This document shows positions 5,080-47,238 of a stretch of DNA of 64,000 bases, in pieces. Position 1 is the first letter of the stretch. Each line of letters opens with the position of its first letter. The DNA is from an uncultured virus (IMG/VR IMGVR_UViG_3300017917_005385) (lineage: Duplodnaviria > Heunggongvirae > Uroviricota > Caudoviricetes): IMG/VR virus record IMGVR_UViG_3300017917_005385. The stretch is one strand, 5' to 3'. The notes under the pieces were generated by a model. It saw only the letters and a program-made list of their open reading frames with translations. It searched no databases and was not told the origin of the DNA. A program made the position numbers and the translations under genes.

Positions 5080-5651
5080 TGTTATCTTACCAAGATATTT
5101 TAAATCTTATTAAAGAATCTGATTTCACACTTGTTGGTTATACCTTCAAGGATGAAAGAATTAAAGATGAATTACTTTCTAATTTTAACTATGTTGAGAT
5201 TGAAAAAGTCAATTCGTCTTTTTCTTTTAAATCATTTTTAAGAGACCTTAAACTAGAATCTTTATTAGAAAATAAGTCTGTAAAAAATCCAGAGTATATT
5301 CTTTTAGATATTAATAATATAAGATTTGAAGAAAAGGATAGTTTAGGTGGTAGACAAAGAGTTATTAGAAGTTTTGTTGAAAATCTTAGAAGTCAATTAT
5401 ATACAGATTATTCTGAATTTCCTGGAAGTTCTCAATTTAAAGTTATTCTAACATCTTCTTTATATAGAAGTGGTGTAAATTCTAATAATGATGGTATTAA
5501 TAATTTCAGTGGGGGAAGTGGTCCAATTTATTCTTCTGATTTAGCTTTGACTATAATTGATAATAAGATTACAATAATCAAGAATAGATTTGGCAACAAT
5601 GGTGATGAAATAGTATATAAATTTCAAGAAAATTTAACTACATTTGCATAA
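5079..5651 (+). CDS. hypothetical protein, C-terminus weakly like DnaB/RecA-fold helicase end
   Basis: SDLAL...IIKNRFG; no Walker A motif visible. Confidence 0.5.
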   Translation: MLSYQDILNLIKESDFTLVGYTFKDERIKDELLSNFNYVEIEKVNSSFSFKSFLRDLKLESLLENKSVKNPEYILLDINNIRFEEKDSLGGRQRVIRSFVENLRSQLYTDYSEFPGSSQFKVILTSSLYRSGVNSNNDGINNFSGGSGPIYSSDLALTIIDNKITIIKNRFGNNGDEIVYKFQENLTTFA

Positions 5652-6085
5652 TGAAAATTACAACAAATAGAAAAGCATATTACGAGTATTTTGTGTTGGA
5701 AGAATTCAACGCAGGAATTATGCTATTAGGTAGTGAAGTTAAATCTATTCGTGATGGTAACGTAACCATTACAGACTGTTTTGCTTATATTTCAAATGGT
5801 GAAATTTTCGTAAAGAATATGAAAGTTGCTAAATACAAACAAACTCATATTTTTGAAAAGCATGATGAAAATCGTGATAAAAAAATTCTTCTTAATAGAA
5901 AAGAGATAGATAAAATAGAAAAACTTTTACAAGATAAAGGTACAACTATGGTTCCTTTAGAAATATTTACCTCACATAATAGAATCAAAGTTAAGATTGG
6001 TGTTGTAAAAGGCAAGAAGCTATACGATAAAAGAGAAACTATTAAAAAGAGAGATATCGAAAGAGAAATCCGCCGTAGCGTCTAA
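5651..6085 (+). CDS. smpB: SsrA-binding protein SmpB
   Basis: NRKAYYEY..AGIMLLGSEVKSIR...GKKLYDKRE. Confidence 0.95.
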   Translation: MKITTNRKAYYEYFVLEEFNAGIMLLGSEVKSIRDGNVTITDCFAYISNGEIFVKNMKVAKYKQTHIFEKHDENRDKKILLNRKEIDKIEKLLQDKGTTMVPLEIFTSHNRIKVKIGVVKGKKLYDKRETIKKRDIEREIRRSV

Positions 6086-8071: not shown

Positions 8072-8134
8072 ATCATATATATTAAAAATTATTTGGTAAA
8101 ATAAAACTTTATTACTACTTTTGTATAAGAATTA

Positions 8135-9529: not shown

Positions 9530-9675
9530 TATTTGGTGAATTAAAAAAGACACCGTATATTTGTATAACAAAACAAGAAAATAAAAAAAATTCATATAAA
9601 ATTTGGTAAATTTAAAACTTTTTACTAATTTTGTATAAAATAAATCAAAAGAGACAAAAACTTTTTAATATATAA
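9530..9675 (+). promoter_or_regulatory. tandem Bacteroidota-type promoters plus AATATATA motif upstream of tRNA array 1
   Basis: TTTG...TATATTTG (9532-9563), TTTG...TAATTTTG (9602-9633), TTTTTAATATATA; near copies at 33084-33260 and 43808-43880. Confidence 0.75.
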
Positions 9676-9679
9676 ACAA

Positions 9680-9778
9680 ATGAGAACATTTAATACACAT
9701 AAACATTTTAGTAAATCGAATAAGTGGTTTAGCAACCAGTTCGGTACTGAAAGTGTATTGCTCTCAAATAAGATGTAA
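9680..9778 (+). CDS. leader peptide 1 (His/Phe/Lys/Trp): MRTFNTHKHFSKSNKWFSNQFGTESVLLSNKM
   Basis: Short ORF between promoter and terminator; H/F/K/W codons match the downstream tRNAs. Confidence 0.8.
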   Translation: MRTFNTHKHFSKSNKWFSNQFGTESVLLSNKM

Positions 9779-9805
9779 CAAATCTATTTATACAAGACAA
9801 TATTC

Positions 9806-9846
9806 AAAAGTCCGAACTTAACAAAAAGTTCGGACTTTTTTGTTTT
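9806..9846 (+). terminator. attenuator terminator 1
   Basis: AAAAGTCCGAACTT/AAGTTCGGACTTTT stem plus U tract; leader AGTTCGG (9738-9744) complements the 5' arm. Confidence 0.88.
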
Positions 9847-10180: not shown

Positions 10181-10262
10181 ACAGGTACTCATTGGTGTGA
10201 CCAGCCGGTTCCAACCCGGTAATTCGTAAGAGTGGCTGTAGGTTCGAGTCCTACTACCTGTG
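10181..10262 (+). tRNA. atypical tRNA-Trp(CCA) with non-canonical D and variable regions
   Basis: acaggta/tacctgt acceptor; gccgg-ttCCAac-ccggt; canonical T arm. Confidence 0.6.
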
Positions 10263-10277
10263 CTAAAAGACAAACCT

Positions 10278-10518: not shown

Positions 10519-10605
10519 GATTCTGTCGCTTAGTGGCTATAGCAACTGGCTTTTAACCAGTAGAGATAATGTTCTCAACCGTGGGTTCGAGTCCCACCAG
10601 GATCA
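10519..10605 (+). tRNA. tRNA-Lys(TTT), long variable arm
   Basis: actgg-ctTTTaa-ccagt; gaga/tctc variable stem. Confidence 0.8.
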
Positions 10606-10611
10606 CAAAAC

Positions 10612-10695
10612 ACTCCTGTCGCTCAGAGGCCGAGAGCAACTGGCTTTTAACCAGTAGACGAAAGTCCATCGTAGGTTCGAATCCTACCAGGGGTA
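10612..10695 (+). tRNA. tRNA-Lys(TTT), long variable arm
   Basis: actgg-ctTTTaa-ccagt; gac-gaaa-gtc variable stem. Confidence 0.8.
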
Positions 10696-10700
10696 CAAAT

Positions 10701-10785
10701 GACTCCGTTTCCGTAGAGGCCGAACGGTTCTGACTCTTAATCAGATGACGAAAGTCCACCGTGGGTTCGAATCCCACCGGGGTCA
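10701..10785 (+). tRNA. tRNA-Lys(CTT), long variable arm
   Basis: tctga-ctCTTaa-tcaga; gac-gaaa-gtc variable stem. Confidence 0.8.
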
Positions 10786-10877
10786 CAAATTGAAACTAAA
10801 AACTAAAAAGTAATTTTTTAGATAATTTTATAGTTTTTAGTTTTAATATATACATGAAATAAAATATATTTTTGTGT

Positions 10878-11420
10878 ATGAAAGAAGAAATAATTAAACT
10901 AATAAATGAGGGTTTTACATATGATGATATTACTAAAAAATTAGGTTGTTCTAAAAGTACAATATCTTATCATTGTAATAAATTAAATTTAAAAAGTAAA
11001 AGTAAAAATATAGATGTAAATAGTGAACTTGTAAATAAAATTAACGAATTGTATAAATGTGGAAATAGCTCTTATACAATATCAAAAATTTTAGGAATTT
11101 CAAAAAGTACAGCTCTTAAATATATTAGTAAAGAAAATATAAGGACTAAGAAAAAAACTAAAACTAAAAAGGATAAGTCCGAATACATAATGAGATGGAA
11201 GAAAAATCTTAAAAAGAGTTTAGTTGAATACAAAGGATCTAAATGTGAAATTTGTGGATATGATAGATGTATAGAGGCTTTAGAATTTCATCACTCTGAT
11301 CCAAGTAAAAAGGATTTTTCAATATCTACAAAATTATTTGGAATTGAAAAAATGAAAAAAGAAGTAGATAAATGTTTACTGTTATGTTCTAATTGCCATA
11401 GAGAAAAACATTATTTATAA
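10878..11420 (+). CDS. HNH homing endonuclease with N-terminal HTH repeats
   Basis: CEICGY...LEFHH...LLCSNCHREKH; two HTH-like segments; lies within the tRNA region. Confidence 0.85.
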   Translation: MKEEIIKLINEGFTYDDITKKLGCSKSTISYHCNKLNLKSKSKNIDVNSELVNKINELYKCGNSSYTISKILGISKSTALKYISKENIRTKKKTKTKKDKSEYIMRWKKNLKKSLVEYKGSKCEICGYDRCIEALEFHHSDPSKKDFSISTKLFGIEKMKKEVDKCLLLCSNCHREKHYL

Positions 11421-11428
11421 TAAAATTA

Positions 11429-11558
11429 GGGGATGTAGCTCAGTGGTAGAGTTTAAAATATCTCTTTTGAGGTTTTACCTTGAAAAAGTGTTGATTAAAA
11501 GAGTTACTTCGTTTGAATTGAAATCAAAAGGTCGTTGGTTCGAATCCAACCATCCCCG
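11429..11558 (+). ncRNA. tRNA-like RNA with a long stem inserted between the D arm and anticodon arm
   Basis: ggggatg/catcccc acceptor, canonical D and T arms, insert pairing ctcttttga/ttaaaagag followed by TTACTTCG. Confidence 0.6.
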
Positions 11559-11639
11559 CTAAAAAAATATTTGTAAATCTCAGAAAAAAGATTTACTTTT
11601 GTAGAAACAAAGAATAAAAAATTAATATATAATAAAGTT

Positions 11640-11717
11640 ATGAAAACAATTATGCTTACATCGAAGTCGTCAAGTAGTCGCTCGTCAAAAACGAGTGAGG
11701 TTCGATCGTATTCATAA
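11640..11717 (+). CDS. leader peptide 2 (Ser/Arg-CGN): MKTIMLTSKSSSSRSSKTSEVRSYS
   Basis: 10 of 25 codons are Ser; Arg codons CGC and CGA; followed by a terminator and Arg-ACG plus four Ser tRNAs. Confidence 0.85.
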   Translation: MKTIMLTSKSSSSRSSKTSEVRSYS

Positions 11718-11742
11718 TAGTCGTATAAATAAGATATTATGT

Positions 11743-11780
11743 AAACCCTTCGAACCAAAAGTTTGAAGGGTTTTTTGTTT
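11743..11780 (+). terminator. attenuator terminator 2
   Basis: AAACCCTTCGAAC/GTTTGAAGGGTTT plus U tract; leader GGTTCGA (11699-11705) complements TCGAACC. Confidence 0.88.
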
Positions 11781-16780: not shown

Positions 16781-16844
16781 ATCATATATATTAATAAACT
16801 TAGTTGATAATAGTAATATAATAATAAAAAAAACAAAGTTATAA

Positions 16845-24315: not shown

Positions 24316-24378
24316 ATTTGTATAATAATTGAAAAAGGGACTAAACTTTTTTAATATATACACATACAATAAAAACAT

Positions 24379-24450
24379 TGCGGGGTAGAGCAGAGGTAGC
24401 TCGCAAGGCTCATAACCTTGAGGTCGCAGGTTCGATTCCTGCCCCCGCTA
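24379..24450 (+). tRNA. tRNA-Met(CAT), initiator-like
   Basis: caagg-ctCATaa-ccttg; 1:72 mismatch; fMet-like D arm. Confidence 0.8.
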
Positions 24451-24536
24451 CTAAAAAAATAAAAAAGATTTGGTGAAATGAAAAAGTCTCCATATCTTTG
24501 TAAAAGAAATAAGAAAACAATATAAAACGAATTAAA

Positions 24537-24614
24537 ATGAACACTGTTATGAACATAGCGTATTATTATGAGGGGGAGCGTAGCTCAAACGTCAGACTAA
24601 TGTCTATGTCGTAA
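24537..24614 (+). CDS. leader peptide 3 (Tyr/Glu): MNTVMNIAYYYEGERSSNVRLMSMS
   Basis: TAT TAT TAT GAG GGG GAG; followed by a terminator and Glu/Tyr tRNAs. Confidence 0.85.
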   Translation: MNTVMNIAYYYEGERSSNVRLMSMS

Positions 24615-24636
24615 TGGTTTCATTATGATATTAACT

Positions 24637-24673
24637 AACCCAGTCTGACTTATCAGACTGGGTTTTTTGTTTT
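24637..24673 (+). terminator. attenuator terminator 3
   Basis: AACCCAGTCTGA/TCAGACTGGGTT plus U tract; leader GTCAGACT (24591-24598) complements AGTCTGAC. Confidence 0.9.
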
Positions 24674-25694: not shown

Positions 25695-25775
25695 ATGAAA
25701 AATTTAACTAACATATCAACAGCAATAATCGAAGGCGGCGCGGGAGCGAATGTCACTGGCTGGTTTATGTTATAA
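25695..25775 (+). CDS. leader peptide 4 (Ile-ATA/Gly/Ala): MKNLTNISTAIIEGGAGANVTGWFML
   Basis: GCA ATA ATC GAA GGC GGC GCG GGA GCG; followed by a terminator and Ile/Gly/Ala tRNAs. Confidence 0.85.
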   Translation: MKNLTNISTAIIEGGAGANVTGWFML

Positions 25776-25799
25776 TCTTTCATCAAAAGAAGTAAACGG

Positions 25800-25836
25800 A
25801 ACCCAGTCAGTGAAAATTGACTGGGTTTTTTTATTT
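25800..25836 (+). terminator. attenuator terminator 4
   Basis: AACCCAGTCAGT-gaaa-ATTGACTGGGTT plus U tract; leader CACTGGCTGG (25754-25763) pairs with CCAGTCAGTG. Confidence 0.9.
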
Positions 25837-33069: not shown

Positions 33070-33263
33070 AATATTTTAGAAAGTATTTGGTGAATTAAAA
33101 AACACACCGTATATTTGTAAAACAATTGAGAGAGGCAACGATTTAGATACAAATTTCAATTTTTTTTACAAATTTTAGAAAAAAATTAGGCAAACTTAAA
33201 ACTTTTATCTATATTTGTATAAAATAAGTCAAAAGGAACAAAAACTTTTTAATATATACAACA

Positions 33264-33374
33264 ATGAAAACAATGAATTTAAATATGAATCTTAATCTAA
33301 CAGTGGTGAATACGTTATGTATTAGACCAGTGGAGGGTTTTGCCATATCTAAAAATTTGTTTTCAGTCAACTAA
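33264..33374 (+). CDS. leader peptide 5: MKTMNLNMNLNLTVVNTLCIRPVEGFAISKNLFSVN
   Basis: Codons 3-21 use only T, M, N, L, V, C, I and R(AGA), the isotypes of the downstream array. Confidence 0.85.
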   Translation: MKTMNLNMNLNLTVVNTLCIRPVEGFAISKNLFSVN

Positions 33375-33402
33375 TGTAAGACAAATAAACTAAAGATAAG
33401 TG

Positions 33403-33434
33403 AAACCCTCAGACAAAAATCTGAGGGTTTTTTT
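33403..33434 (+). terminator. attenuator terminator 5
   Basis: AAACCCTCAGA/TCTGAGGGTTT plus U tract; leader GAGGGTTT (33333-33340) complements AAACCCTC. Confidence 0.9.
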
Positions 33435-33502
33435 ATGCCTGTCCTCCTGAACATTTGGTGTTGGTTCGGGAGGACATGAAAAAGGAAAACACCATACCAC
33501 AT

Positions 33503-33574
33503 TCCTCGGTAGCTCAGTGGTAGAGCAAACGGCTGTTAACCGTTAGGTCGCTGGTTCGAGCCCAGCCCGGGGAG
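33503..33574 (+). tRNA. tRNA-Asn(GTT)
   Basis: aacgg-ctGTTaa-ccgtt; G73. Confidence 0.92.
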
Positions 33575-33582
33575 CAAAACAT

Positions 33583-33667
33583 TGGTAGGTACCCGAGCGG
33601 TATTCAGGGACTAGTCTGATACACTAGGTGAGAAATCACGACATGGGTTCAAATCCCATCCTACCAA
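33583..33667 (+). tRNA. tRNA-Ile(GAT), long variable arm
   Basis: ctagt-ctGATac-actag; gtga/tcac variable stem. Confidence 0.78.
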
Positions 33668-33673
33668 CAACAT

Positions 33674-33745
33674 TCACTGGTAGCTCAGAGGCAGAGCAGG
33701 CGCCTGTTAAGCGTCAGGTCGGGATATCGTAATTCCCCCAGTGAG
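33674..33745 (+). tRNA. tRNA-Asn(GTT)
   Basis: ggcgc-ctGTTaa-gcgtc; T-loop ATCGTAA. Confidence 0.82.
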
Positions 33746-33751
33746 CAAAAC

Positions 33752-33830
33752 GCCTCAGTAGCCGAGGTCGCCTTCTAAGCGACTAATCGTAACGGAACTG
33801 AAAATGTAGGTTCGAATCCTACCTGGGGTA
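33752..33830 (+). tRNA. D-arm-less tRNA-like RNA with TCT (Arg) anticodon
   Basis: gcctcag/ctggggt; gtcgc-ctTCTaa-gcgac; canonical T arm. Confidence 0.6.
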
Positions 33831-33836
33831 CAAAAT

Positions 33837-33909
33837 GGTCTCCTCGTCCAACTGGATAGGACATCGGTCTTCTAAACCGAGAATATGGGTTCGAATCCCG
33901 TGGAGACTA
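33837..33909 (+). tRNA. tRNA-Arg(TCT)
   Basis: tcggt-ctTCTaa-accga. Confidence 0.9.
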
Positions 33910-33917
33910 CAAAAAAT

Positions 33918-34000
33918 GCCGAAGTGGTGGAATGGTAGACACGCTAGCCTTAGGAGCTAGTACCCGAAAGGGTGTGTGGGTTCGAGTCCCACCTTCGGTA
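33918..34000 (+). tRNA. tRNA-Leu(TAG)
   Basis: ctagc-ctTAGga-gctag; variable arm. Confidence 0.92.
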
Positions 34001-34006
34001 CAAAAT

Positions 34007-34094
34007 TGGCAGGTAGCCTAGTGGTTCAGGCACCAGACTGTTAATCTGAGAGAAGAAATTCTCAACGTGGGTTCGAATCCCACCCTGTCAGCCA
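34007..34094 (+). tRNA. tRNA-Asn(GTT), long variable arm, CCA encoded
   Basis: caga-ctGTTaa-tctg; gagaa-gaaa-ttctc. Confidence 0.78.
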
Positions 34095-34097
34095 AAT

Positions 34098-34170
34098 AGT
34101 CCTGTAGCTCAATCGGGGGAGCGCCACTGTTACATAGTGGAGGGAGTCGGATCGTAACCGACCGGGACTA
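34098..34170 (+). tRNA. tRNA-Val(TAC)
   Basis: ccact-gtTACat-agtgg; T-loop ATCGTAA. Confidence 0.8.
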
Positions 34171-34176
34171 CTAAAA

Positions 34177-34274
34177 TGCTTTATGCACAATCTTACGATC
34201 TCTCAGTTAAAAGCTGTCGTAGGTTTAAGTGATAAAACAATATGTTTATCAGTTGTGAAAAACATAAAGCACCA
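34177..34274 (+). ncRNA. candidate three-way-junction RNA within tRNA array 5
   Basis: tgctttatg/cataaagca, cacaa/ttgtg, cttacga/tcgtagg, tgataaa/tttatca; ends in CCA. Confidence 0.5.
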
Positions 34275-34275
34275 T

Positions 34276-34349
34276 TGGAACATAGCTCAATTGGTTAGAG
34301 CATTCGCCTGATACGCGAAAGGTTATGAGTTCGAGTCTCATTGTTCCAA
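34276..34349 (+). tRNA. tRNA-Ile(GAT)
   Basis: ttcgc-ctGATac-gcgaa. Confidence 0.9.
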
Positions 34350-34357
34350 CAACAAAT

Positions 34358-34440
34358 GGTACTGTGGCCGAGTGGTGTCGAAAGACGAGAGGCACAGATC
34401 TGCAAAATCTGTCACACTGGTTCGAATCCAGTCAGTACCT
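34358..34440 (+). tRNA. tRNA-Cys(GCA), hairpin in D-loop
   Basis: cagat-ctGCAaa-atctg; U73; gtc-gaaa-gac insert. Confidence 0.85.
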
Positions 34441-34446
34441 CAACAT

Positions 34447-34518
34447 TGTTCTGTAGCTTAATGGGAAAGCGCTACCTTGACATGGTAGAGAGAGTCGGAT
34501 CGTTACCGACCAGAACAA
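34447..34518 (+). tRNA. tRNA-Val(GAC)
   Basis: ctacc-ttGACat-ggtag; T-loop ATCGTTA. Confidence 0.85.
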
Positions 34519-34524
34519 CTACAA

Positions 34525-34600
34525 GCCTCTATAGCTTTAACGGTAGAGCACCGCACTTGTAATGCGGGGGTTGGCGGTTCGAATCCGTCTGGAGGCTCCA
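34525..34600 (+). tRNA. tRNA-Thr(TGT), CCA encoded
   Basis: ccgca-ctTGTaa-tgcgg. Confidence 0.9.
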
Positions 34601-34601
34601 A

Positions 34602-34721
34602 ATAATGGATGGTGATTAAGAGTGTTACTTCGTGAAATTGGTATACACATTTGTCCTAAAAACAAACTTTTGAGGGTTCAAGTCCCTCAGTAAAATCACT
34701 CTTTAGACTTTCCTCCATTAT
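34602..34721 (+). ncRNA. tRNA-like domain on a long closing stem (Y-RNA/YrlA-like architecture)
   Basis: ataatgga/tccattat and aagagtg/cactctt stems enclose D, anticodon (TAA) and T arms; GTTACTTCG shared with the 11429 element. Confidence 0.55.
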
Positions 34722-34723
34722 AT

Positions 34724-34807
34724 GCCGATGTGGCTCAGTGGCGACAGCACTGGTTTTGTAAACCAGAGACGAATAGTCCAACGGGGGTTCGAGTCCCTCC
34801 ATCGGCT
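34724..34807 (+). tRNA. tRNA-Thr(TGT), long variable arm
   Basis: ctggt-ttTGTaa-accag; gac-gaata-gtc. Confidence 0.8.
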
Positions 34808-34822
34808 CAAAATAAATCACCT

Positions 34823-34908
34823 GCCTGGGTGGTGGAATTGGTAGACACGCTGGACTTAAAATTCAGTGGGCAGTAATGCCCGTGCGGGTTCGAGTCCCGC
34901 CCCAGGTA
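34823..34908 (+). tRNA. tRNA-Leu(TAA)
   Basis: ctgga-ctTAAaa-ttcag; variable arm. Confidence 0.92.
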
Positions 34909-34939
34909 CTGAAGTGAAACAAAAGTTCACTACTAAATT

Positions 34940-35010
34940 ATTGGGATAGTTTAACGGTAAATCGTGGGCCTGATATGCCCTTGTTCTTGGTTCGACTCCA
35001 GGTCTCAATA
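34940..35010 (+). tRNA. tRNA-Ile(GAT), divergent
   Basis: gggc-ctGATat-gccc. Confidence 0.65.
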
Positions 35011-35016
35011 CTAAAC

Positions 35017-35088
35017 TTCGATATTGCCTAATGGTAGGGCGCAGGGGGACATGTTCCTGAGGACTTGGTTCGATTCCGGGTATCGATA
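35017..35088 (+). tRNA. degenerate tRNA, anticodon unassignable
   Basis: D and T arms present; irregular anticodon loop. Confidence 0.45.
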
Positions 35089-35096
35089 CAAAAAAA

Positions 35097-35169
35097 GCAG
35101 TCATCGTATAATAGGTGATTACACGTCCTTGGTACGGACGAGACTCCGGTTCGAATCCGGATGATTGCT
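35097..35169 (+). tRNA. tRNA-Thr(GGT)
   Basis: cgtcc-ttGGTac-ggacg. Confidence 0.87.
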
Positions 35170-35180
35170 CAACAACATCT

Positions 35181-35261
35181 GCCCAGATGGTGGAATGGTA
35201 GACACGCTCGTTTAAGAGGCGAGTACCGAAAGGTGTGAGAGTTCGAGTCTCTCTCTGGGTA
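35181..35261 (+). tRNA. tRNA-Leu(AAG)
   Basis: ctcgt-ttAAGag-gcgag; Leu-type D and variable arms. Confidence 0.8.
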
Positions 35262-35271
35262 CAAAATATAT

Positions 35272-35341
35272 GCCGTGGCTTAGTGGAAAAGAGCCTACTC
35301 TCATAAGGTGGGTTAAGTGAGTTCGAACCTCATACACGGTA
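35272..35341 (+). tRNA. tRNA-Met(CAT), divergent
   Basis: ctCATaa loop; weak stems; shortened acceptor-D junction. Confidence 0.55.
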
Positions 35342-35346
35342 CAAAT

Positions 35347-35427
35347 GTCAGAATGGTGGAATGGTATACACACTGGTCTCAAAAGCCAGCGCCTAACGGT
35401 ATGAGAGTTCAATTCTCTCTTCTGATA
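35347..35427 (+). tRNA. tRNA-Leu(CAA)
   Basis: ctggt-ctCAAaa-gccag; variable arm. Confidence 0.87.
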
Positions 35428-35449
35428 CTCGATAAAAAAACCAATAGAA

Positions 35450-40250: not shown

Positions 40251-40366
40251 GACTTATATATTAAAAAAGTAATCACACAATATTATTTAAAATAATTCTT
40301 AATAAAATTTGGCAATTGTTAATAAGTATTGTATATTTGTAATAATAAGTCTAAATATAAATAAAG

Positions 40367-43885: not shown

Positions 43886-43984
43886 ATGAAAAACTTAAAC
43901 TTAAATATTGTTAACCCGCAACCACAAGTTGTAATCGATCAGGATCCTGGTTCGAAAGGGGCTAACTATGTGGTTTTAAGTTAA
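43886..43984 (+). CDS. leader peptide 6 (Pro/Gln/Asp): MKNLNLNIVNPQPQVVIDQDPGSKGANYVVLS
   Basis: PQPQ...DQDP; followed by a terminator, Pro/Asp tRNAs and then the Gln tRNAs. Confidence 0.82.
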   Translation: MKNLNLNIVNPQPQVVIDQDPGSKGANYVVLS

Positions 43985-44005
43985 ACAAGATATTAACTAT
44001 GAAAC

Positions 44006-44045
44006 AAACCCAGTTAGTCGAAAGATTAACTGGGTTTTTTGTTTT
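44006..44045 (+). terminator. attenuator terminator 6
   Basis: AAACCCAGTTAGTC-gaaa-GATTAACTGGGTTT plus U tract; leader GGCTAACT (43960-43967) pairs with AGTTAGTC. Confidence 0.9.
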
Positions 44046-44731: not shown

Positions 44732-45313
44732 ATGAACTTGAAAGAGGAAATTAAAAATTGTTATAGTGTATCAGATTTTTGTAGATTATTAAATTTATCA
44801 CAAGGTGGTGGTGGATTTTCTAAAGCGAAAAAAATAATACAAGATAACAATCTGGATATATCACATTTTGATAAGGGTTACTTGAAAAGACAAAAGAATC
44901 CTAAAATTGAAAAGGTTTGTCCAGTTTGTGATAAGAAATTTGAAACGGTTACTTGGAGCAATAGAAAAGAAAAAGTTACTTGTTCTAAGTCGTGTGCTAA
45001 CTCTTACTTTAGAAGTGGTGTTGATAACCCAAACTGGAAAGAAGAATCATACAGAACTACTTGTTTTTATTATCACAAAAAAGAATGTATAATATGTGGT
45101 GAGGAAAAAATTGTAGAGGTTCATCATATGGATGAAAATCATATGAATAATAAACCCGAAAATTTAGTACCTTTGTGTCCTACTCATCATCAATATTGGC
45201 ACTCAAGATATAAAGAGGAAATAGAAGATAAAATATATAACTACATAAAAGAATTTAAAATGAGAACAACAACACAATACCAGCAACAACAACAAATTAA
45301 TCCAACGGATTGA
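44732..45313 (+). CDS. HNH homing endonuclease whose C-terminus reads in frame through leader peptide 7
   Basis: CPVC, CSKSC, CIICG...VHH.D.N..NN..ENL..LCP.HH. Confidence 0.85.
   Translation: MNLKEEIKNCYSVSDFCRLLNLSQGGGGFSKAKKIIQDNNLDISHFDKGYLKRQKNPKIEKVCPVCDKKFETVTWSNRKEKVTCSKSCANSYFRSGVDNPNWKEESYRTTCFYYHKKECIICGEEKIVEVHHMDENHMNNKPENLVPLCPTHHQYWHSRYKEEIEDKIYNYIKEFKMRTTTQYQQQQQINPTD
45260..45313 (+). CDS. leader peptide 7 (Gln): MRTTTQYQQQQQINPTD
   Basis: Own ATG after AATATATA (45232-45239); 6 Gln codons; terminator, three tRNA-Gln and glnS downstream. Confidence 0.85.
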   Translation: MRTTTQYQQQQQINPTD

Positions 45314-45338
45314 TAACGGTATTGTATTGTCAAAATTC

Positions 45339-45375
45339 AAACCCGAATCAATTCAAATTGGTTCGGGTTTTTTTT
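45339..45375 (+). terminator. attenuator terminator 7
   Basis: AAACCCGAATCAAT/ATTGGTTCGGGTTT plus U tract; ATTGAT..CGG around the leader stop complements the 5' arm. Confidence 0.88.
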
Positions 45376-45377
45376 AT

Positions 45378-45448
45378 TGTCTTATAGTGTAACGGCAGCA
45401 CAAGAGATTTTGACTCTCTTAGTCTAGGTTCGAATCCTAGTGAGACAA
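45378..45448 (+). tRNA. tRNA-Gln(TTG)
   Basis: agaga-ttTTGac-tctct. Confidence 0.9.
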
Positions 45449-45454
45449 CAACAT

Positions 45455-45526
45455 TGCTCTATAGTATATGGGTTATCATATCTGTCTTTGAAACAGATGA
45501 ACTTGGTTCGAGTCCAAGTGGAGCAA
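45455..45526 (+). tRNA. tRNA-Gln(TTG)
   Basis: tctgt-ctTTGaa-acaga. Confidence 0.85.
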
Positions 45527-45533
45527 CAAACAA

Positions 45534-45604
45534 TGCCTCGTAGTGTAATGGCAACACAGAAGATTTTGACTCTTCTATTCTAGGTTCGAGTCCTAGCGAG
45601 GCAA
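45534..45604 (+). tRNA. tRNA-Gln(TTG)
   Basis: gaaga-ttTTGac-tcttc. Confidence 0.9.
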
Positions 45605-45633
45605 CTAAAAATAACATAAAAGATATAAATACT

Positions 45634-47238
45634 ATGAATTTCATTGAAGAAAAAATATTAGATAAAGGTAATCTTGATAAATTAACTTTAAGATTCCCAC
45701 CAGAGCCAAATGGTTATTTACATATTGGTCACGCTAAATCCATTATCTTAAATTTTGGATTGGCTGAAAAATATAATAGACCTTGTAACTTGAGATTTGA
45801 TGATACAAATCCAACTACTGAAGATACACATTTTGTTGAATCTATAATAAAAGATATAGAATGGTTAGGCTACAAGCCTGCTAATATTTTCTATACATCT
45901 GATTACTTTGAATTTATTTACAAATGTGCTGTTACTTTAATTAAGAAAGGTCTAGCTTATGTTGATGATTCAACATCTGAAGAAATTGCTAACTTAAAAG
46001 GAACACCCACAGTTGCTGGTAAAGATTCACCATACAAGTCAAGAACTATTGAAGAAAACTTAGATCTATTTAATAGAATGAGATTAGGTGAATTTGTTGA
46101 AGGTTCTAAAATTCTTAGAGCTAACATTGATATGGCTTCTCCTAATATGATTTTAAGAGATCCTGTTATTTATAGAATAATATCTAAGTCACATCATAGA
46201 ACTGGTGATACTTGGAAGATTTATCCAATGTATGATTTTGCTCATCCTTTAAGTGATTATAACGAAGGTATTACTGATTCTTTATGTACTTTAGAATTTG
46301 AAGTTCATAGACCTTTATATATGTGGGTCTTAGAAAATTGTGATTTAGAAAATCCTTTACCAGAAGAAACTGAGTTTGCTCGTTTGAACATTGACTATAC
46401 AGTTATGTCAAAGAGAAAGTTAAAGAGATTAGTTGAAGAATCTTATGTTGATGGTTGGGATGATCCAAGAATGCCTACTATCTCTGGATTAAGAAGAAGA
46501 GGTTATACACCAAGTGCTATTAAAGATTTTTGTGATAGAATTTCTGTTACTAGAAAAGATGGTGTTGTTTCTTATTCTTTACTTGAAGAATGTCTAAGAA
46601 CCGAATTGAATAAGACTGCTCCAAGATTAATGGGTGTCATGGATCCTGTTAAGTTAGTTGTTACTAATTTTGAAGGTGAAGGATATTGTGAAATTGACAA
46701 TAATCCAGAAGATGAAAATGCTGGTAAAAGAAAAGTTTCTTATTGTAATGAATTTTGGATTGAAAAAGAAGATTTCAGAGAAGAAGCCAATAACAAATAT
46801 CACAGATTAAAGTTAGGTGGTGAAGTTAGATTAAAAGGATTGTTTATAGTTAAAGCCAATGAAATAATTAAAGATGAAAACGGTGAAATTATAGAAATCA
46901 GATGTACTTATGACCACGATGCTTGGATTGGTGTTACTGAAAAGAGGGTTAAAGGTACTATTCACTGGGTTTCTGTTAACCACGGAGTTAAGATGAAAGT
47001 AAACGATTATGATAGATTATTTATCAATAGTTCACCAGACAAAGGAGATGAAGATTTTACAACTCATGTCAATCCTAACTCATTAGTTATTAATGATAAT
47101 GCTATCTTTGAGGAAAATGTAAAAGATTGTAAAGTAGGTGTGCCTGTTCAAATGATGAGAAAAGGTTACTATGTTTTAGATAAAGATGGTAAGTCTTGGA
47201 ACAGAACTGTAAGTTTGAAAGAAGGATGGGTAGGTTAA
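45634..47238 (+). CDS. glnS: glutamine--tRNA ligase
   Basis: RFPPEPNGYLHIGHAK, IYPMYDFAH, SLCTLEF, MSKRKL, GWDDPRMPT, KGTIHWVS. Confidence 0.96.
   Translation: MNFIEEKILDKGNLDKLTLRFPPEPNGYLHIGHAKSIILNFGLAEKYNRPCNLRFDDTNPTTEDTHFVESIIKDIEWLGYKPANIFYTSDYFEFIYKCAVTLIKKGLAYVDDSTSEEIANLKGTPTVAGKDSPYKSRTIEENLDLFNRMRLGEFVEGSKILRANIDMASPNMILRDPVIYRIISKSHHRTGDTWKIYPMYDFAHPLSDYNEGITDSLCTLEFEVHRPLYMWVLENCDLENPLPEETEFARLNIDYTVMSKRKLKRLVEESYVDGWDDPRMPTISGLRRRGYTPSAIKDFCDRISVTRKDGVVSYSLLEECLRTELNKTAPRLMGVMDPVKLVVTNFEGEGYCEIDNNPEDENAGKRKVSYCNEFWIEKEDFREEANNKYHRLKLGGEVRLKGLFIVKANEIIKDENGEIIEIRCTYDHDAWIGVTEKRVKGTIHWVSVNHGVKMKVNDYDRLFINSSPDKGDEDFTTHVNPNSLVINDNAIFEENVKDCKVGVPVQMMRKGYYVLDKDGKSWNRTVSLKEGWVG

Follow-up and report, generated by a model that had tools for sequence, protein, structure and literature searches.

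The 64,000-nt stretch of DNA considered here (the window) belongs to the uncultured virus IMGVR_UViG_3300017917_005385 (Caudoviricetes), and the analysis centres on a short leader, a terminator and a tRNA array that together form module 5, one of its seven tRNA modules. Module features lie on the plus strand throughout. The leader is an open reading frame (ORF, 33264-33374) that starts with the ATG at 33264, opens with MKTMNLNMNLNLTVVNTLCIRPVEGF and encodes, in 36 codons before the TAA at 33372-33374, the peptide MKTMNLNMNLNLTVVNTLCIRPVEGFAISKNLFSVN. It is followed by an intrinsic terminator (33402-33434), in which 33402-33413 and 33420-33431 form a 12-bp stem before a T run, and then by an array (33503-35428) of 20 tRNA genes belonging to exactly eight isotypes, together with two unassignable elements. 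Judged by its sequence, module 5 is likely to be a ribosome-mediated (leader-peptide) transcription attenuator gating this operon of about 20 tRNA genes.

The correspondence between leader and array resides in codons 3-21 (33270-33326; TMNLNMNLNLTVVNTLCIR), here called the sensing codons. A preliminary description of this DNA had claimed that these codons spell no amino acids other than T, M, N, L, V, C, I and R, and reading the ORF confirms it. All 19 can be decoded by anticodons of the array, 18 of them as matched by a script and the Cys TGT once a GCA tRNA had been assigned by hand. Across 35 long ORFs of the window (12,382 codons) the eight amino acids make up a fraction of 0.413, and the chance of 19 in-set residues running together is about 5e-8 per position. 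The leader is also the longest in-set run (19) in a six-frame translation of the 64 kb; the runner-up has 14 residues and the maximum in real proteins is 11. Homologous leader ORFs are present in 11/11 relatives, and the module-5 family is defined as 11 distinct aligned leaders. In these, every residue from codon 3 to the Arg codon is in the eight-letter set (228/228), whereas outside this stretch the figure for the peptides is 48/143. The 11 leaders differ by at least 14 replacements, as well as by inserted residues, all of which stay within the set; 56 of 129 nonsynonymous neighbours are within it, and a naive estimate for the replacements gives p ~8e-6.

ARAGORN at its default settings overlooks Ser, Cys, armless Arg and other odd tRNAs, and a lower threshold brings in noise; doubtful genes were therefore decided by Rfam matches, folds and anticodon-loop searches. 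In the array the defaults return 18 tRNAs: three Asn-GTT, three Ile-GAT, one Arg-TCT, five Leu (TAG, two TAA, AAG and CAA), two Val (TAC and GAC), three Thr (two TGT and one GGT) and one Met-CAT. Rfam supplies two more, whose anticodon loops were read from folds. One is an Arg-TCT tRNA without a D arm (33752-33831; loop CUUCUAA, Arg-UCU) and the other a Cys-GCA tRNA with an enlarged D arm (34358-34441; 57.4 bits, loop CUGCAAA). The totals become Asn 3, Ile-GAT 3, Arg-TCT 2, Leu 5, Val 2, Thr 3, Cys 1 and Met 1. The inventory of eight isotypes with no other assignable isotype, as first described, thus stands, but its count of four Leu genes has to be raised to five (one of which, 34623-34697, folds poorly) and two unassignable elements have to be added. 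Inside the array there is no promoter-like site, and no plus-strand terminator outside the tRNA bodies.

The module system was traced within the window and its relatives. The resulting cross-genome set comprises 42 modules from eight genomes: the window, the two uncultured phage genomes that are its nearest public records (LR745206.1, 634,780 bp, and LR756502.1, 642,428 bp) and five IMG/VR records of 135-476 kb. A module was taken as a short ATG ORF ending no more than 90 nt from a terminator, with a tRNA no more than 260 nt from that terminator, and an array as ending at the next leader or at a gap of more than 700 nt. A Met-CAT gene at 24379 in the window and a Pro/Glu/Asp array in the genome G001 were excluded, being leaderless. 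The Arg-TCT, Cys-GCA and Met-CAT loops that ARAGORN missed were found in the arrays of both LR genomes (LR745 and LR756) and of G002. In all eight genomes the true assignment of leaders to arrays is the unique best permutation (1/5040, 1/120, 1/5040, 1/120, 1/6, 1/120, 1/6 and 1/5040), and the mean match of a leader is 0.45 to its own array (n=42) as against 0.10 to other arrays (n=198). The genome G005 and the window, being close to each other, do not count as independent cases.

Whether array content and leader co-vary among relatives was a check set beforehand, and in the genome G001, compared with the window's clade, they do. G001 is a divergent 391-kb phage with terminal repeats, in which the isotypes are split among the arrays differently from the window, and its leaders differ as their arrays differ. 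The leader of its Leu/Ile/Thr/Cys/Met array, MKTSTLILTLTIICITMLCNCSMV, lacks V and R, and a search of that array for anticodon loops found none for Asn, Val or Arg-TCT. The Val tRNA of G001 is instead grouped with Ala and Gly, behind a leader containing ...ILVVGQQGAAAV..., its Arg-TCT with Ser, behind a leader that carries AGA, CGG, CGC and CGT, and its Asn-GTT with Phe, Trp, Lys and His, behind MKKFNKHNNHNFWFN, which has seven Asn codons. The correspondence reaches the level of individual codons. Arg codons in the window are AGA in 84% of cases, CGC in 0.7% and CGA in 0.9%; CGC and CGA occur in the leader of the Ser/Arg-ACG module, AGA in all module-5 leaders. Similarly, Ile is written ATA in module-4 leaders (Ile-TAT) and ATT in module 5 (Ile-GAT).

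Within the leader ORF lies an antiterminator arm, region 2 (GGAGGGTTTTGCC, 33332-33344), and the two arms of the terminator constitute regions 3 and 4. Region 2 contains GAGGGTTT (33333-33340), which had been noted as a perfect complement of the terminator arm; its exact partner is indeed found there, as AAACCCTC (33403-33410) in the 5' arm. The pairing of region 2 with this arm is worth -16.9 kcal/mol, a value equalled by 2/300 shuffles, and the extended antiterminator fold (33327-33416) reaches -24 kcal/mol (z -4.8). Across the module-5 family the terminator stems range from -14 to -21 kcal/mol, with four pairs changed on both sides in relatives, whilst the antiterminator duplex ranges from -15 to -21.7 kcal/mol in 11/11 members, with no more than 2/300 shuffles as good. 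When a genome's own leaders are set against permuted terminator arms, the true pairing ranks 40/5040 in the window, 1/120 in G001, 1/120 in G003 and 10/5040 in G005. In two family members, G004 and L096, the terminator core CCCTCAG has become CCCGAAC and the antiterminator is altered to match, the peptide at the antiterminator switching from PxEGF to TAGSGC. That terminator and antiterminator changed jointly, and the peptide with them, points to selection acting on the RNA at this place.

Region 1 (33278-33307) overlaps the sensing codons and, without a ribosome, is predicted to pair with the antiterminator arm; its predicted helices are 33278-33281:33350-33353, 33283-33287:33344-33348, 33294-33298:33335-33339 and 33304-33307:33326-33329. 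When the upstream part is folded by itself, arm 2 pairs with ORF nucleotides 21-46 in 11/11 family members. A small hairpin, AAUAC/GUAUU (33309-33323), is invariant in the family (consensus columns 61-65 with 71-78); lying within the sensing codons it might, speculatively, be a pause hairpin. In a geometry model with a 27-nt ribosome mask, the antiterminator forms when the A site is at codons 2-20, forms partly at Arg21 and is blocked from Pro22 onward, and in 11/11 relatives the last in-set codon marks the edge of the antiterminator-permissive ribosome positions. The parts of module 5, their complementarity and conservation, and the match of codons to anticodons are directly observed. A gathering-score scan of the whole window against Rfam returned tRNA only, and the nearest models at E<=10 for 33080-33510 are leader attenuators far below their thresholds, namely Phe_leader (RF01859, 25 bits, gathering 55) and His_leader (RF00514, 21.8 bits, gathering 49). 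A separate 13-bp hairpin (33437-33480; -21.9 kcal/mol, z -5.0) lies between the terminator and the first tRNA and has no counterpart at the equivalent place in L001 and L013.

Translation of the leader, stalling within it and the switch itself are what we infer from these features. Transcription would begin at promoters upstream of 33264, and a ribosome would translate the 36-codon leader as RNA polymerase proceeds. If all in-set codons were decoded fast, the ribosome would leave the sensing codons, region 1 would pair with region 2, or the ribosome itself would cover region 2, and region 3 would then pair with region 4, giving termination at the T run. If charged tRNA were scarce for any of Asn, Leu, Thr, Met, Val, Cys, Ile (AUU) or Arg (AGA), the ribosome would be expected to stall in codons ~5-21 and to cover region 1; region 2 would pair with region 3, the terminator would be blocked and the array of those same tRNAs would be transcribed. 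The outcome would be a demand-driven tRNA supply with negative feedback, in which shortage of any one input could produce read-through and termination would need all eight to be plentiful. The multi-input leader-peptide attenuator that the preliminary description had proposed is in this way supported at the sequence level, by the terminator, the antiterminator, the compensating change, the geometry and the co-variation of leaders with arrays, and less firmly by region 1.

Some observations weigh against this reading. The equilibrium fold of the full-length RNA is always the terminator, and the antiterminator (2:3) forms before region 4 exists even without a ribosome; the switch must therefore be kinetic, and the classical folding order is assumed. 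Column-wise covariation of the antiterminator is not significant: one of 12 pairs is changed on both sides, and shuffles match the pairing in 317/500 cases. The alignment has an invariant antiterminator core and a three-column gap that misaligns the G004 subtype; 82.3% of its 130 antiterminator cells are paired, against 35-55% when it is slid. Over the cross-genome set the antiterminator reaches p<=0.05 in only 21/42 modules; several sister antiterminators are unconvincing, some being no better than shuffles. Nor are all arrays gated, as the Met-CAT gene at 24379 and the G001 Pro/Glu/Asp array have no leader. The latter (L118 945-1390) directly follows a protein-coding gene, with neither leader nor terminator; gating is therefore not the rule throughout the phage group. 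The equilibrium folds, the weak covariation and the modules that miss significance would fit an arrangement with a genuine leader, terminator and translation, whose output is set by Rho access, RNA processing, transcript stability or a fixed low read-through rather than by a hairpin switch. Such an arrangement is improbable, given that the antiterminator scores well in all 11 module-5 members and has altered in step with the terminator in G004 and L096, and that the constrained codons end where the antiterminator-permissive ribosome positions end.

The match of the module-5 leader to the set is, moreover, partly generic. Residues 2-9 are rich in N/L/T/I/M/V in all leaders of the phage group, and in the leaders of other modules they are 63% in set (151/240) against a proteome background of 41%, whilst residues 10-21 of those leaders are 34% in set; the specific signal is therefore mainly in residues 10-21. 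Within the sensing stretch, Cys, Ile and Arg are also represented by one codon apiece. It might be supposed that the short ORFs encode functional small peptides, or are kept for reasons other than tRNA, and owe their composition to AT-rich codon bias and shared leader ancestry, since an N-terminus of the MK(T/N)-N/L/T/I type is common to all leaders and N, I, L, K, F and Y are favoured by AT-rich codons. This supposition, already disfavoured, has very little probability: none of the 228 sensing positions holds K, F, Y, E, D or S, all just as AT-rich, the C-terminal halves are not conserved as peptides and track the RNA arms, the rare CGC and CGA match Arg-ACG, and leader-array pairing is the best permutation in every genome. 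The six window leaders searched, module 5 included and all but the 17-residue Gln leader, matched no peptide family in Pfam or NCBIfam at E<=10. Direct binding of uncharged tRNA by the leader RNA, as in a T-box and without a translating ribosome, can be given almost no weight. It has in its favour, by analogy only, that the regulated genes belong to the translation apparatus, as with T-boxes. A T-box or other riboswitch was not matched at gathering score in the window or at E<=10 in 33080-33510, a single RNA would need to read eight tRNAs, and the signal consists of codons read in one frame between a start and a stop, and is kept through synonymous and in-set changes.

The attenuator proposed for module 5 does not stand alone. 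The seven modules of the window share a common plan of promoter-like sites, a AAACTTTTTAATATATA motif, an ORF of 17-36 codons, an antiterminator, a terminator and tRNAs, and jointly they cover 20/20 amino acids, 18 of them through ARAGORN, Ser through Rfam and lowered-threshold ARAGORN, and Cys through Rfam and folds. Module 1 (leader and terminator 9680-9839) has the leader MRTFNTHKHFSKSNKWF..., with the excerpt ..HKHFSKSNKWF.., before an array of Phe, His, Phe, two Trp and four Lys. In module 2 (11640-11773) the leader MKTIMLTSKSSSSRSSKTSEVRSYS, with ..SKSSSSRSS.., precedes Arg-ACG and four Ser, and in module 3 (24537-24664) the leader MNTVMNIAYYYEGE..., with ..YYYEGE.., precedes a Glu/Tyr array. 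The leader of module 4 (25695-25827) is MKNLTNISTAIIEGGAGAN..., with ..AIIEGGAGA.., and its array holds Ile-TAT-like, Gly, Met and Ala; that of module 6 (43886-44037) is MKNLNLNIVNPQPQVVIDQDP..., with ..PQPQVVIDQDP.., and its array holds four Asp and Pro. Module 7 (45260-45370) has the leader MRTTTQYQQQQQINPTD, with ..QYQQQQQ.., three Gln tRNAs and then a glutaminyl-tRNA synthetase (GlnRS) gene, which begins 29 nt past the last Gln tRNA (45378-47238). Lying behind the Gln leader, the synthetase may therefore also be controlled by the Gln attenuator.

Modules 4 (25695) and 7 (45260) have no promoter-like site of their own, and codons for their isotypes occur in the leaders upstream of them (ATA, GCG and GGG in leader 3; CAA and CAG in leader 6), which together suggests attenuators in series. 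For isotypes of the module that follows, the upstream leaders list 2-5 residues; for those of non-adjacent modules the figure is 0-4.7, a difference that is suggestive only. The Met-CAT tRNA at 24379 (24344-24451) lies directly behind the conserved motif with no leader and no terminator, and its 1:72 position is unpaired; it may therefore be an initiator, which a leader could not sense. This leaderless arrangement of motif and Met-CAT is found in 10 IMG/VR loci. An HNH-like ORF (44732-45313; weak Pfam matches) continues in frame into the Gln leader, where relatives have a leader of 16-17 codons alone. Ahead of module 2, an ORF with a helix-turn-helix (HTH) domain (10872-11559) is followed by a tRNA-like gene that ARAGORN can call only with a 48-nt intron.

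Upstream of the module-5 leader lies a promoter-like site (33086-33117) of the form TTTG-N-TAnnTTTG, which we take to be a Bacteroidota promoter form; the window contains 23 of these, where shuffles give 7.0 +/- 2.5. A second TATATTTG box, read from the sequence at 33210-33217, suggests that the promoters may be in tandem, and the tandem layout recurs in L001 and in module 1. The conserved motif AAACTTTTTAATATATA (33242-33258) ends 5 nt upstream of the leader ATG. Exact copies begin at 9658, 33242 and 43864, and near copies are found ahead of other modules. Near copies also lie 4-5 nt upstream of the start codons of ordinary genes, at 8076-8092, 16785-16801 and 40255-40271 (minus strand). Its occurrence ahead of ordinary genes and of the leaderless Met-CAT tRNA makes the motif a promoter or 5' element and not a part of the sensor; it may be a phage promoter yielding leaderless or nearly leaderless transcripts. 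A search of IMG/VR with a 19-nt leader pattern gave 14 stretches, of which only three are true relatives. The 17-nt upstream motif gave 94 IMG/VR and 118 metagenome stretches, with tRNAs downstream at 25 and 18 sites respectively and a leader-like ORF as well at 15 and 10. The remainder are chance matches or ordinary genes.

Several members of the module-5 array are unusual in themselves. The Arg-UCU tRNA at 33752-33831 has no normal D arm and carries a 22-nt region after the anticodon arm, and this armless form is kept in four genomes (the window, L001 2024-2113, L120 ~5612-5690 and L002 ~2745-2825). The tRNA-like gene at 35017-35090 has a non-standard anticodon loop, not of 7 nt, that contains CAU; its isotype is unassignable, and a homologue is called in G005. 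A 99-nt structured RNA within the array (34174-34272; -24.7 kcal/mol, z -3.8, 0/200 shuffles as good) is not a tRNA. Long tRNAs, of 83-88 nt, occur at 33583-33668, 34007-34094, 34724-34808, 10181-10263 and 10519-10786, with the anticodons Ile-GAU, Asn-GUU, Thr-UGU, Trp-CCA and Lys-UUU/CUU. Each lies close to a tRNA of ordinary length with the identical anticodon, and the two that were folded have a long extra arm, normally a trait of Leu, Ser and Tyr tRNAs.

The window as a whole is AT-rich (30.7% G+C) and is a translation island. It holds 47 tRNAs by ARAGORN and 49 tRNA matches by Rfam, and also encodes SmpB, a YqeY-like protein, Thg1, a PP-loop enzyme, a GluRS-like gene, GlnRS and a sigma-70 family protein.

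Multivalent leader-peptide attenuators are well known in enterobacteria, where thr responds to Thr and Ile, and ilvGMEDA and ilvBN to Ile, Leu and Val; trp, his, leu and pheA are further examples. Module 5 has in common with these a short leader rich in regulatory codons, alternative 2:3 and 3:4 pairings with a putative 1:2 pairing, and a terminator before the structural genes, and in the enterobacterial systems, as proposed here, each of several amino acids can relieve termination. It differs in that its products are tRNAs and not biosynthetic enzymes, in having eight inputs where the enterobacterial leaders have one to three, mostly without long runs of a single codon, and in being phage-borne and one of seven units covering 20 amino acids. 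A closer parallel in function is the pheST (pheM leader) attenuator, which controls phenylalanyl-tRNA synthetase and so places a component of the decoding apparatus under a leader-peptide attenuator that responds to the cognate charged tRNA; its likeness in the window is the unit of Gln leader (45260), Gln tRNAs and GlnRS. The product of module 5, unlike that of pheST, is the tRNA itself, and the proposed loop would therefore answer both to charging and to the abundance of the tRNA. T-box riboswitches likewise control translation-related genes through transcription antitermination by tRNA status, but they lack an ORF and each binds a single uncharged tRNA directly, whereas module 5 has a leader ORF and no T-box match. 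Module 5 is outside all the curated families with which it was compared (Rfam leader models, T-box, and Pfam and NCBIfam peptides). Most likely, the type of control is already known, as leader-peptide attenuation, and its application to tRNA genes with eight inputs is new.

Phage tRNA clusters are viewed as compensation for codon usage or as counter-measures to host defences that cleave tRNA. They comprise large tRNA sets, as here, where the set is embedded in a translation island with SmpB, Thg1, the PP-loop enzyme, the GluRS-like gene and GlnRS; accounts of them are not known to describe regulation by codon-matched leaders. No published account of leader-peptide attenuation of tRNA genes was found in literature searches. 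Old work on E. coli tRNA-Phe genes may mention an attenuator-like leader. Among such defences, Septu is reported to cleave tRNA-Tyr (PMC13096335). In the main text of the huge-phage paper PMC7162821, neither 'leader' nor 'attenuat' occurs.

Why phages should have tRNA genes at all has long been asked. A sensor composed of codons for the very tRNAs under its control would imply that the phage gauges decoding speed for each codon class and supplies tRNAs on demand. Leader-peptide attenuation, a textbook control of amino-acid synthesis, would thereby come to include tRNA genes, eight inputs at once and a genome-wide set of seven units for all 20 amino acids. It would also provide an annotation rule for the tRNA operons of huge phages, in the form of a short ORF composed of the downstream isotypes and followed by a terminator. 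A bolder possibility, offered tentatively and on balance doubtful, is that the phage runs a closed-loop decoding homeostat, in which seven leader sensors, each written in the codons of its own tRNA block and some in series, together monitor all 20 amino acids and switch on the matching tRNAs only when the host pool fails, for example through host shut-off or through anticodon-nuclease defences that cleave host tRNAs. If so, phage tRNA islands would be an inducible, self-limiting counter-defence and not a constitutive adjustment to codon usage.

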